Source: Eledone cirrhosa (lineage: Eukaryota). Taken from it: a stretch of 64,000 bases of DNA. The notes under the pieces were generated by a model. It saw only the letters and a list, made by a program, of their open reading frames with translations, was not told where the DNA came from and searched no databases. Both the position numbers and the translations under genes were made by a program. The DNA is taken from the NCBI GenBank assembly GCA_964016885.1, contig OZ024754.1, positions 33,356,001 to 33,420,000 on the forward strand, given 5' to 3'. The stretch's first letter is position 1. Each line of letters opens with the position of its first letter. Below, one piece after another: positions 46,767 through 59,053 of this stretch.

Positions 46767-47152
46767 GCAAAAGTTCTATTTAAAATTGTTGGGATACAAC
46801 AAGTAAATATTTTTATAACTGATATAAAGCACTCGACAAATATTTGGAGTAGATATACGATATTAATAAATGGAAACTATATTTATAAAACCATATTTAT
46901 TTCATTATACATATTTCAGGGATACCAAATTAAACTATGGTATGCCTTCATCAGACAAAATACTATCCGGATGACTTCCAAAAACAATGGTTGCATTTTA
47001 ATAGGGTACGTCAAAGCTTATTTGTAAAACTGTTATATATTGTATTTTCTCTGATGAAGGCATACCATAGTTTAATTTGGTATCCCTGAAATATGTATAA
47101 TGAAATAAATATGGTTTTATAAATATAGTTTCCATTTATTAATATCGTATAT
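46767..47152 (-). mobile_element. Family A hairpin-plus-tail element with a hammerhead on each arm
   Basis: Perfect 103-bp inverted arms 46853-46955 / 47050-47152; CTGATGA-AGGCATACCA..TGGTATCCCT-GAAA-TATGTA-TA; tail 46767-46852. Confidence 0.88.
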
Positions 47153-50100
47153 ATATATATATATATATATATATATATATATATATATATATATATATAT
47201 ATATATATATATATATATACTTACAAGTGTGTATGTATTTATGTATATATGCAAGTTTGCATCAACAAATGTCGTCTATGTGACCTTATGTGTGTGTTTA
47301 GTCCGACATAGATTGTATACGGATGTAGGAGGAGTTAAGTTAGACCAAGTAGAAGATACGAGGAAGGAGAGACAGGTAGATAGATAGAGAGAGGGAAAGT
47401 GAGAGTAAGAGAAACAGAGATGTAGAGAGGGAGAGATAGAGAGAAAGAGGGGTATATATAGAGAGAGAAATAGTTAGAGAACGAGAGGTATAGAGGGGGA
47501 GAGATAGAGGGAAATAGAGGTAGAGAGAGAGAGAGAGAGAGAGAGAGTTAGAGAAAGAGAGGTATAAAGAGAGAGAGATGAGAGAAAGATAGGTACAGAG
47601 AGGGAGAAGTAGGTACAGAGGGAGAGATAGAGAGAAAGAGAGGTATAGAGAGCGAGAGATGGAGAGGCAGAGAGATTTAGAGAGATTGAGAGAAAGCGAG
47701 GTAGAGAGAAAGAGAGATAGGTTAAGAGAGGGAGAGATAAAGAGAAATAGAGGTATAGAGAGGGAGAGATAGAAAGAAAGATAGGTGTAGAGGGAGAAAT
47801 GGAGAGGGGGGTGAAAAAGAGAAGTATAGAGGGGGAGAGATAGAGGGAAAGAGAGATAGGTTAAGAGAGGGAGAGATAGAGGGAAAGAGAGGTATAGAGA
47901 GGGAGAGATAGAGAGAAAGGTAGGTGTACAGAGGGAGGAGTAGGTACAGAGGTAGAGATAGAGGGAAAGATAGGTGGAGAGAGGGAGAAGTAGGTACAGA
48001 GGGAGAGATAGAGGGAAGGAGAGATAGGTTAAGAAAGGGAGAGATAGAGGGAAGGAGAGATAGGTTAAGAGAGGGAGAGATAGAGGGAGGGAGAGATAGG
48101 TTAAGAGAGGGATAGATAGAGGGAAGGAGAGATAGGTTAAGAGAGGGAGAGATAGAGAGAAAGATAGGTTTAGAGAGGGAGGGGAAGGTTCAGAGAGGGG
48201 GACAGCAAGAGAAGTACAGACAGATGGATGAGCTTATGAACTACAATATGATATTTATTTAATCGGAATAACACGTACATATACACACAGACACACACAA
48301 GCACATACACACATTGTGTATATGTGTAATAGTAAGTGAGCGCGCTTGCATACAGAGTTATATGTATATATATATATATATGTATATATATATATATATA
48401 TATATATATATGTATATATATATGTATGTATATATATATATATATATATATATATATATATATATATATATATATATATATATATATATATATATACATA
48501 TATATTTATCTGTATGTATATATATATGTGCATACATAAATACTTACGAATGTACATGCATACATACATACGTACGTATGTATGTACAAACACATATATA
48601 TATATATATATAATTACATTTCAATACATATATAAATACATACATATATATTGTATATATATATATATATATGTATATATATATATATATATATATATAT
48701 ATATATATATATATATATATATATATATATATATATATATATATATATATATATATATATATATATATATAAATATATGTATATATATAATTATATAACT
48801 TTCTTTTTATATATAATTATATATGTATGTATATATATATATGTATATATATATATATATATATATATATGTATATAGTATATATATATTATATATATAT
48901 ATAAATATATATATATGTGTATGTATATATATATATATATATAACAAACGCACACACACACATACACACACACATATATATATATATATATATATATACA
49001 CACACATATAGGCATATACATACAACTCCCTCACTTGGAGAATTAAGCGTAGGACAGCAGCTTGATTCTCCAAGCATGGAGAAAGCTTTCACTTTATACA
49101 TAATTTATGAATTGTTGTAATCAAGCAAATAAAATTCAATCCGTTGTTGTTTGAAAGAGTTTTTCGTCATTATAGTGTGGGTCTGTGTGTCTAGATATAT
49201 ATATATATATATATATATACATTATATACAGATATACATATACACATTATATATATATACATACATTTATATATACATATATATATACGTATATATACTC
49301 ATATATATACATATATATACATACATACATAAATATATATATATATATATATATACATACTTATGTATACATAGATATATACATTTTTAAATGCATATAT
49401 ATACATATATATATATACATATATATATACATATATACATATATATATACATATATATACATACATATATATATATATATACAGATATATATATACATAT
49501 ATATATATACATATATACATACATATATATACATATATATATATATATACATACATATATATATATACATACATATATATATACATACATATATATATAT
49601 ATATATACATACATATATATATATATATATACATATATATACATATACATGCATATATATATATACATACATATATATACATACATATATATATACATAC
49701 ATATATATATATATACATACATATATATATACATACATATATATATATACATATATATACATATATATACATACATATATATATACATATATATAGATAC
49801 ATATATATACATACATATATATATTTTTTTTTGTGTATTTTATTTTTTTATCATGTGCTTTCTGTTTGTTTTTTTTTATTCTATTTTTATTTTAGGGATT
49901 TTCGTTATTTCTTACCGTCATCTATATCGCCCCGAGTAACACACATTGAATACAATATGAAACTATAATTATTCTACAAATATCTCTATGTATGAGCATG
50001 CATCTATATATATATATATATATATATATACATACATGTCTATGTGTACGTGTATGTTGTATGTTTATGTATACATATATATATATATGTGTGTGTGTGT

Positions 50101-52094
50101 ATGTATACATATATATATATGTATATATATATATGTATATGTGTATATGTGTGTGTGTGTGTGTATAAATATATACATATACACATATATTAACATGTAT
50201 CTATGTGTATATCTATTTTTATATGCATACATATATAGAGAACGAGACATCGATGGATAGACATAAATATAGACATATATATATGTATATAGACATAGGT
50301 ACATATATAATATATATATATATAGACATAGGTACATATATAATATATATATATATATATATATATACATAAATATATATATATATAGACATAGGTACAT
50401 ATATAATATATATATATATAAATATATATATATATTTATATATATATATATGTATATATATATATATATATATATATATATATATATATATATATATATA
50501 TATATATATATATATATATGTGTGTGTGTGTATACTTATATATATATAAAGACATATATATATAGAGAGAGAGGCATACATATATATATATATATATATA
50601 TATATATATATATATATATATATATATATATATATATATATATATATATATATATATATATATACGTATATATATCTATATGTGTAGTCTGTATATGTCT
50701 ATATGTCTATGTTGCAAAAAAAAATACACCAAAAATAATAAAATAATACTATAATACTGAAAATAATGCAAAAAAGATAAAAACCCTAGGATTTCCATCT
50801 CTCGCTCCATTACTCTTAGCTCGGAGAAAGATATCTTGCTAAGCAAGCAAATACGATTCATTGCTATCGATATTTGGTAATCCGGCTCTCTTGGACTTAT
50901 TCGGAATCGTTCGACTGCTTTACACTCGTTCTTGCATGAGCAACTCTGTTGTGGATACAATCCTCTTGTCGCTGTTTTGGTTTCAACTCGTTCTTGGCTC
51001 TTCTACGTGTGTTTGTATGGATGTATGTATGGATGTGTGTAAGTATGTATGGATGTATGTTTGGATGTATGTATGTATGGATGTGTGTATGTATGGATGT
51101 ATGGATGTATGGATGTTTGTATGGATGTATGTATGGATGGATGGATGTTTGTATGTATGTATGTATGTATGTATGTATGTATGTATGTATGTATGTATGT
51201 ATGTATGTATGGATGTATGTATGGATGTGTGTACGGATGGATAGATATATGTAAAGATGTATGTTCGCACACACACACACACATATATATATATATATAT
51301 ACTTATACATATATATATGCATATAAATATATATCCATATACATATACATACATATATATATACATATATATATATATACATATATATATATATATATAT
51401 ATGCATATGCATATACATATATATATATATATGCATATACATATATATTCATATATATATATATGCATATAGATATATATATGCATATACATATATATAT
51501 ACATATACATATATATTTATATATGTATGTATATATGTATGTGCGTGCATATATATATATATGTGTATGTATATATGTATGTGTGTGCATATATATATGT
51601 GTGTGTGCGTGTGTGTGTCGTGCCTTTCTCCGATATCTCTCTCTCTCTCTCTCTCTCTCTCTCTCTCTCTCTCTCTCACACACACACACACACACACACA
51701 CACACACATACACACACACTTTATTTCAGTTTCCCCTCGTCTCTCACTCGTTCATTTTTATTCTACCTTTCGGTTTCTTCCTAAATTCTGTCATTTAAAT
51801 TTCCTTCTGGATTTCTTGAAAAGATACCGTGAGGAAGATATTGTACAAGCGAATATTGCTGATAATATTACTACGATTCCTCTCCTGATACGGGTAACTC
51901 TATTAGCCTCCCGGGGCTACATTAGGAAGACAATAAAGACGGTACAGGGCGTTACTCTGTGCGGTTTGTTATGTAGAGTAAAAAGTTTCCAAATAGTAAC
52001 TACAACAACAATAATAACATTAACAAACAAAATAATGAAAATAACAACTACAAAAACAACAATAGTTACGACGATGATGATGATGGTGATGATC

Positions 52095-58420: not shown

Positions 58421-58582
58421 AAATGGCTTCTACCGGACTAGAGCTGTTTCATTCGAAGGAAATCCTCAGGAAATCTTTCCTGTTGATTTCCTTCGAACGA
58501 AACAGTTCTAGTCCTGTAGAAGCCATTTTTAAATTAAATATTTATACTCTGCTAGTATTGAGTACCCGAATGAACCCGGAAT
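58421..58582 (+). mobile_element. Family 2 hairpin with back-to-back hammerheads, plus tail
   Basis: Arms 58421-58473 / 58476-58528; cores CTGAGGA (minus) and CTGTTGA (plus); tail contains GTATTGAGTAC. Confidence 0.82.
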
Positions 58583-58788
58583 ATACATATGTATACATAT
58601 ATATATATATATATATATATATATATATATATATATATATATATAGGAGGTGAGTTTTATATATATATATATATAGGAAGTGAGTTTTATATATATATAT
58701 ATATATATATATATATATATATATATGTATATGTGTGTGTGTATGTGTGTGTGTGTGTGTGTGTGTGTGTGTGTGTGTGTGTGTGTGT

Positions 58789-59053
58789 AGAAGTTATATT
58801 TAATTTGTTGGAATTCCGACAAACATAAATGCTTATAACTGATATAGAGCACTCAACAGATAACTGGAGTAAATATTCCAAGATATTAATAAATGGAAAC
58901 TATATTTATAAAACCATATTTATTTTATGATATATATTTCAAGGGCGACCAAGCCAATCTTGGTGCGCTTTCATCAGATAAAATACAAAATTTGTTTTAT
59001 AAATAACGACATAACCATGGAAATCAACCTTAACGGTTGAAAATTCGCTGGAT
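58789..59053 (-). mobile_element. Family A element, colinear form, with intact hammerhead at 58921-58985
   Basis: Minus strand TATTTTAT-CTGATGA-AAGCGCACCA..TGGTCGCCCTT-GAAA-TATATA-TC-ATAAAATA followed by the tail. Confidence 0.85.

Follow-up and report, generated by a model that had tools for sequence, protein, structure and literature searches.

A 64,000-nucleotide stretch of the Eledone cirrhosa genome (assembly GCA_964016885.1, contig OZ024754.1, positions 33,356,001 to 33,420,000; hereafter the window) holds three copies of a short repeat, family A, which on sequence grounds is the ribozyme-bearing end of a Penelope-like retrotransposon (PLE) of the Hydra clade, made up of part of the pseudo-long terminal repeat (pLTR) and a tail. 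We think it quite probable that these copies stop about 7 bases before either of two hairpins and that their contrasting shapes come from priming of both ends of a TA cut on one RNA, one end per hairpin. On balance, we also favor the broader view that in Hydra-clade PLEs a duplicated RNA operator (GCUC-stem-UY-GAGCAC) docks two reverse transcriptase (RT)-endonuclease (EN) subunits, sets priming ca. 7 nt upstream without pairing to the target, and brings one RNA onto both ends of the break. The geometries alone are already published. What appears new is the positioning signal; no description of twin hairpins or of a ruler distance was found in the literature searched, with most subscription journals outside its coverage.

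Throughout, the sense strand is the strand bearing the hammerhead core, the module (M) is the pLTR part, T is the tail, sites 1 and 2 are the internal stop sites, and an arm is one half of an insertion. Copy A3 (58787-59053, minus strand) is colinear, M then T. Its module runs from the common 5' end ATCCAG, identical in many genomic copies, to site 1 (58878-59053, minus) and includes a minimal type I hammerhead core (58921-58985, minus) with CUGAUGA...GAAA, a palindromic stem III, and an AUC triplet, read by eye and from the fold and only predicted to cleave. The 91-nt tail between sites 1 and 2 (58787-58877, minus) carries hairpin 1 (ACUC CAG..CUG UU GAGU; 58851-58870, minus), which a motif scan placed 7 nt past site 1. 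In A1, the tail (46767-46857, minus), with its own hairpin 1 in the same scan (ACUC CAA..UUG UC GAGU; 46831-46850, minus), adjoins a 5'-truncated module on the tail side, the shorter arm (46858-46963, minus), and arm alignment showed that the longer, tailless arm starts at the common 5' end and reaches site 1, where (TA)n follows (46962-47147, plus). The perfect inverted repeat of A1 is exactly 103 bp (46853-46955 versus 47050-47152), 5 bp of which are TA microhomology. A2 is the tail-inverted form. Its tailless arm is full length, spanning the common 5' end through site 1 (53987-54161, minus), and its tail arm begins 13 nt upstream of that site (54162-54265, plus); in the tail arm, the scan located hairpin 1 with G-U variants (ACUC CGG..UUG UU GGGU; 54182-54201, plus). 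A 145-nt contig from a public run, which may derive from the assembled sample, crosses the inner junction of A2 with flanks of 83 and 60 nt; among the run matches listed there was no piece bridging the junction of A1. All three geometries had been recognized in an earlier note on this stretch and hold, including the exact 103-bp inverted repeat. Colinear, hairpin, and tail-inverted copies are one architecture, an optional inverted tailless arm set head-to-head with a tailed arm of any length.

The stop sites were mapped on family A loci that had been selected by M or T motifs, most of them located in the initial part of contig C1. Among 268 arms, 135 stop at site 1 and 117 carry the tail to site 2, with 8 read-through and 8 unclassified arms. 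The outer ends of inverted arms lying beside a tailed arm are fixed, 82 of 86 falling within +8 to +23 of the anchor, a spread that tracks subfamily indels. Taking the partner arm as template, and after dropping 29 of 90 pairs for indels, mutations, or the lack of a TA flank, (TA)n begins exactly 7 nt before the ACTC of hairpin 1 in 50 of the 61 clean pairs. This agrees with the idea, put forward in the earlier note, of PLE integration products with a programmed internal site, although the breakpoint that it had placed at TATTAATA lies 2 to 7 nt further on, 7 nt before the hairpin ACTC. Microhomology at site 1 was absent in 14 of these pairs (13 of which still end 7 nt from hairpin 1), amounted to one base in 8, and to 2 to 7 nt of TA in 39; thus, site 1 is fixed and annealing is optional. 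The single breakpoint that the three forms had been thought to share stands for the outer ends, which peak sharply across genomic copies, and fails for the inner inversion junctions, which range from +37 to beyond -3000 relative to the anchor. Since the inner junction is variable, site 1 is not a strand-switch point as had been supposed. Short tail arms are somewhat overrepresented near it: 29 of 153 start at -19 to +40, whereas the adjacent 60 nt hold 9 starts (P = 0.005). This soft excess is in line with stalling of a first cDNA at the site-1 complex.

Two further families, D and E, stop at the same features. For the unrelated family D, where the prediction had been set beforehand, 22 of 40 arms ended at hairpin 1, 16 at hairpin 2, and 2 read through, and none stopped at a longer internal (AT)4-5 tract of its 160-nt tail. 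In family E, in which site 2 had been seen once before the count, hairpin 1 was the end point of 10 of 31 arms and hairpin 2 that of 17; of the remaining four, 2 read through and 2 ended elsewhere.

Of 78 head-to-head pairs, 67 join a tailed to a tailless arm, none joins two tailed arms, 3 are tailless/tailless, 6 include a read-through, and 2 an unclassified arm. Independent ends would be expected to give ca. 46% tail/tail pairs, and 0 of 67 were observed (P about 1e-18), so that twin priming on one RNA is favored; products of this kind, already suspected in the earlier note, remain the best fit. The tailless arm is longer than its partner in 46 of 80 pairs, shorter in 16, and equal in 18. 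Gene conversion as the source of the perfect 103 bp in A1 was unsupported: although 19 of 75 pairs are identical, partners match each other no better than they match the nearest other copies.

The ACTC found 7 nt past site 1 opens a bulged hairpin, RCUC-stem-loop-stem-UY-GAGY, present in the tails of families A, B, and C, and a second copy lies just beyond site 2 in families A, C, and D; in a read-through of family C, hairpin 2 is located 6 nt past the tail end. Partial tandems of family A (loci L006, L011, and L081) have a leader that runs beyond the tail, with hairpin 2, to the ATG. From its 5' end, the leader thus holds first the hammerhead core, next site 1 followed by hairpin 1, then site 2 followed by hairpin 2, and finally the ATG. 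In one of them (L006:255-425, plus), the leader fold has a z score of -3.3, and an 11-nt helix (AUCAGUUAUAA / UUAUAACUGAU) is predicted around site 2 and hairpin 2.

The same arrangement was found in relatives at 35 to 46% identity on marine metagenome contigs (77 loci, 58 with an ORF [open reading frame] start and 34 with a hammerhead core upstream); an initial metagenome scan by N-terminal alignment had recovered none. Two hairpins were present in 25 of the 34 leaders, one in 7, and none in 2, whereas shuffled sequences gave an expectation of 0.14 and ORF controls 0, and reverse strands scored in 9 of 34. After clustering, two hairpins were retained in 19 of 26, and both leaders without hairpins carry a UCUC..GAGA variant twice. 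In a set of 72 distinct hairpins, chosen irrespective of pairing, every one opens its upper stem with a Watson-Crick pair (47 C-G and 25 U-A, against a mean of 39.4 in shuffles), and the bulge reads UU in 49, UC in 16, and UA in 7. Of 16 second copies of the leader on metagenome contigs, six enter a microsatellite, all ending 0 to 9 nt before a hairpin, and the other ten comprise two ending 3 to 4 nt before one, six contig ends, one inner truncation, and one read-through. Inspection by eye also reveals the hairpin in the published consensus sequences Hydra-1_Ajap (twice), Hydra-2_Ajap, and Hydra-2_Amil (supplement of PMC8557442, cited here, like the other papers below, from the sections available); those sections mention neither hairpins nor a fixed distance.

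In the mechanism that we propose, the EN would cut the (TA)n target, and each hairpin of one RNA would bind one RT-EN subunit, serving as a ruler. The RT subunits would prime from both DNA ends ca. 7 nt upstream of their respective hairpins, the cDNA started at site 2 becoming the tailed arm and that started at site 1 the inverted tailless arm. Both would extend towards the 5' end of the RNA, the second by strand displacement, and would be joined head-to-head at whatever point each stops. The hairpin form would then arise when the site-2 cDNA is long, the tail-inverted form when it stalls at the site-1 complex, and the colinear form when one priming alone is productive; the many copies of 180 to 270 bp would stem from run-off on the first leader of a tandem transcript.

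Several observations weigh against this proposal. Partner arms resemble each other no more than they do the nearest other copy (3.2 versus 2.2 differences); they are of the same subfamily, which is not proof of the same molecule. There are the three tailless/tailless pairs, one of them probably misclassed; the sampled loci lie largely at the beginning of contig C1, and their partial selection by the tail motif hides pairs of this type. The excess of short tail arms relies on six hand-placed rows. Hairpin 2 of family B is atypical (GCAC..GUGC) and has no bulge, that of family E requires a 64-nt loop, and the read-through searches for C and B assumed RYTC. Kinship among the sequences inflates the hairpin and covariation counts. 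Lastly, the excess of G-U over A-C is modest (19 versus 8 variants in this genome and 6 versus 4 in the relatives), so that recognition as RNA rather than DNA is favored and not proven, and the hairpin, being nearly palindromic, could be read as DNA.

Read in that way, the motif would be a pair of twin inverted repeats recognized by the EN in cDNA or double-stranded intermediates and trimmed 7 nt upstream, the ends being the outcome of resolution and not RT start sites. We consider this improbable, even though the tail has been ascribed to EN-mediated resolution (PMC8557442), the EN of Drosophila virilis Penelope is cited as needing the tail to recognize plasmid DNA (PMC11167929), and two of the near-palindromic motifs were scored also on 9 of 34 reverse strands: the loops vary from 6 to >60 nt on compensated stems, the 2-nt bulge is one-sided, a G-U pair is fixed in family B, and the tail ends of Poseidon_Ac coincide with measured RT start sites (PMC11167929). 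The explanation offered in the earlier note, by which the priming or strand-switch point is fixed through annealing of an AT-rich internal stretch to the (TA)n target, is largely refuted and keeps very little probability. The 14 of 61 pairs without microhomology hold the same register, family D passes a longer internal TA tract (0 of 40 arms stop there), and the inner junctions spread; annealing can fine-tune the site but not choose it. On the side of annealing are the 2 to 7 nt of TA at site 1 in 39 of 61 pairs, the AUAU or UAU that opens the RNA past site 2 in families A, C, D, and E, and the few arms that move to 5 nt where TAT occurs.

The inverted arm could also be made by self-priming, if the cDNA (or an antisense template, according to PMC3846280) folded at its 3' end and copied itself, as head-to-head palindromes were interpreted in PMC3846280. 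The equal arms of 18 of 80 pairs, several with a palindromic center, would suit such a fold-back. However, starting from a tail-primed cDNA it cannot make the tailless arm the longer one, as it is in 46 of 80 pairs and in some by 3 kb, and it leaves the fixed 7-nt outer end unexplained; we judge it highly unlikely. There is also scant chance that two separate RNA molecules are used, one per DNA end, in the manner of the dual priming proposed for L1 (PMC2837659). Partner arms that differ as much as nearest non-partner copies are what this would predict, but with independent ends ca. 46% of the pairs with tailed arms should be tail/tail, against 0 of 67 seen, and an added asymmetry would be needed.

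Insertions of EN-bearing PLEs consist of an inverted 5'-truncated copy with the tail at one end (PMC8557442, PMC3846280), the architecture that we met here in 67 tail/tailless and 0 tail/tail among 78 pairs, and in vitro the RT-EN of Poseidon_Ac cuts both strands and extends them without homology, starting at two internal sites of the RNA between which the tail lies (PMC11167929). From the published inverted copy with its one-end tail, and from the Poseidon_Ac tail lying between two starts, the three geometries can be taken as one known architecture. The likeness to Poseidon_Ac covers the two internal sites bounding the tail, the dispensable homology, the extension of both strands, and a predicted dimer (PMC11167929). 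Hammerhead cleavage is dispensable there (PMC11167929), and here the 5' ends have no peak at the cleavage site. In Poseidon_Ac, however, initiation takes place at an AC-rich stem-loop that lies within the ORF of a single element, unlike the leader sites found here, 5' of two hairpin copies, and the available text of that paper describes no duplicated clade-wide motif or ruler distance (PMC11167929). As in twin priming of L1, the second DNA end would prime internally on the same RNA and give an inverted piece (PMC2837659). In L1, however, annealing at the internal site is a matter of chance and the pieces have no overlap (PMC2837659), whereas here both sites appear programmed and internal and the arms usually overlap by ≥100 nt. 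The L1 form of twin priming was thus rejected on account of the fixed site, the overlapping arms, and the dispensable microhomology; the process works like twin priming nonetheless. Adineta vaga elements and D. virilis Penelope are alike in their head-to-head inverted pLTRs, the tail on one side, and a transcript start inside the pLTR, but their formation was attributed to self-priming or left open, and no positioning signal is named in the available text (PMC3846280, PMC2377424).

The origin of the one-sided tail and of the inverted ends is an open question named by both PMC8557442 and PMC11167929. If the proposal is true, a twin RNA operator would account for the tail and inverted pLTR of PLEs and for the abundance of short run-off copies, and would provide a portable signal for programming the start point of a telomerase-related RT. 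The twin hairpin probably serves as the RNA ligand for an RT whose sister is telomerase; its conservation and measurable ruler distance make PLE end formation directly testable, and it supplies an exact rule by which ends can be annotated in a family group that reaches tens of thousands of copies in this genome.

The inner junctions, though variable, have their main peak at the common 5' end. Of the 153 tail arms placed, 59 start at -120 to -199 and 24 exceed 320 nt, and 47 of 86 inverted arms start at -140 to -199. One of the 153 tail arms and three of the 86 inverted arms start in the 20-nt bin that contains the hammerhead cleavage site, and hammerhead-cleaved RNA was rejected as the main template. 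The common 5' end is probably the transcription start within the pLTR, by analogy with the precedent in PMC2377424. Family C has a comparable 5'-end peak after a TATA-like box, 74 of 98 arms starting 45 to 64 nt from the anchor end, ca. 30 nt after TATTTAAA.

The putative hammerhead is readable in family A from its core boxes and stems, in sequence and fold, the boxes being compared with the consensus ones. In Rfam, family A gave neither a hammerhead nor any other hit of note among the rows listed (150 of 233 weak ones, nearly all microsatellite noise); Hammerhead_1 was matched by one of eight relatives with a score below the gathering threshold, and nothing in Rfam corresponded to the twin hairpin in these eight. 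In many copies of families D and E, the core reads CCGAAGA or CCGAYGA instead of CUGANGA (L096:7440-7480; L401-L429). In the leader of family C (L382), ca. 60 to 100 nt 5' of the anchor, GAAAC..GUC was seen and no CUGANGA box.

Family A is very abundant, and it was assigned to the Hydra clade by motifs of the reading frames to which it is joined. A 23-mer of the module has 45,639 exact matches in the genome and a 20-mer of the tail 14,038, compared with 0 for the reversed controls, so that these repeats are not due to chance. In genomic copies, the module and tail are joined to RT and GIY-YIG reading frames, and N-terminal, RT, and EN pieces occur in order within broken copies. The alternative of a non-LTR retrozyme, formed by noncoding tandem monomers without an ORF of their own, was rejected, as the family A ends are continuous with the RT/EN ORF. 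Families B and C, and the bystanders D and E, also run into ORFs that share N-terminal motifs. Family C retains an intact ORF of 717 amino acids, 40% identical to A over the N-terminal 184. By eye, the RT motifs are RLRWR and SDKT in A and C and ADKT in D; the linker of A reads CNCRIKSNC or CNCRNKSNC, with CDLC and CRH, and that of C reads CNCPDRSIC, with CNLC and CKH (CxCx5C, CxxC, CxH). CCHH is absent in A, and no Cys pair was seen by eye within the GIY-YIG core. Pfam gave no match for the family C protein or for the EN fragment of the window described below, and no solved structure was found.

The marks given for the Hydra clade, RWR/RWK, DKT, a CxCx5C linker, no CCHH, and GIY-YIG at the C terminus (PMC8557442), are shared by the families studied here, as are a putative pLTR hammerhead, (TA)n targets, partial tandems, inverted 5'-truncated copy, and one-sided tail (PMC8557442); TA flanks were present in nearly all of 106 arms listed. 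There are also differences. The tails are longer (ca. 60 to 160 nt versus 30 to 40), and the units are of ca. 3.5 kb (family C tandem period, ca. 3.53 kb; family A arms, up to 3.6 kb) versus generally <3 kb in the Hydra clade, which is a tendency and not a defining motif (PMC8557442). The copy number, tens of thousands, is unlike that of the described Hydra elements (PMC8557442), and three family motifs of this genome were not found in the searched part of the PMC8557442 supplement. Family C is probably recently active, since it forms head-to-tail arrays of ca. 3.53 kb with intact 717-amino-acid ORFs (L381 and L382; G000:C1:91474500-91484499 and 437199000-437208999). In addition, at least 10 further short families of this genome end in (TA)n 30 to 70 nt past the same hairpin, which suggests many more Hydra-type families.

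Besides family A, the window contains several related insertions. Family B, called family 2 in the earlier note, shows the states reported there: two-armed hairpin copies at 42104-42278 (hairpin 1 at 42149-42167, minus), 44935-45081 (44971-44989, minus), and 58415-58575 (58546-58563, plus; noted before as beginning at 58421), a colinear copy at 45101-45238 (minus), and a tail-inverted copy at 54296-54415. Family C is represented by a two-armed copy at 44680-44868, with the same tail hairpin at 44813-44836 (plus), and by a further copy at ca. 438-645. Unlike families adjoin with short (TA)n between them at 53987-54415, 44680-45238, and 58415-59053, as if each insertion left targets for the next. 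A large inverted repeat at 59679-60545, with the same hairpin motif at 60008-60024 (plus), is probably another two-armed insertion of PLE type. An additional hairpin motif is located at 52432-52466 (plus), and isolated hairpin-shaped repeats appear at 15464-15609, 26053-26328, 36558-36624, and 57307-57378. The segment 56302-56802 (plus) encodes an Asn-rich linker and a GIY-YIG fragment with CxCx5C (CNCRNPNNC...VIY...YIG) and is a remnant of another Hydra-type ORF.

The rest of the repeats in the window are of other kinds. A repeat of 150 to 190 bp resembling a short interspersed nuclear element has ca. 15 copies (12549-12721, 25722-25909, 28486-28670, 52866-53255, 55992-56181, and 57006-57193, among others), and a 560-bp repeat ending in (CT)n(TA)n is present in two inverted copies with 87.6% identity (41550-42108 and 54810-55419). 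Long minisatellite arrays occupy 1537-6351, 20827-23534, 37761-38714, and 45470-46570.

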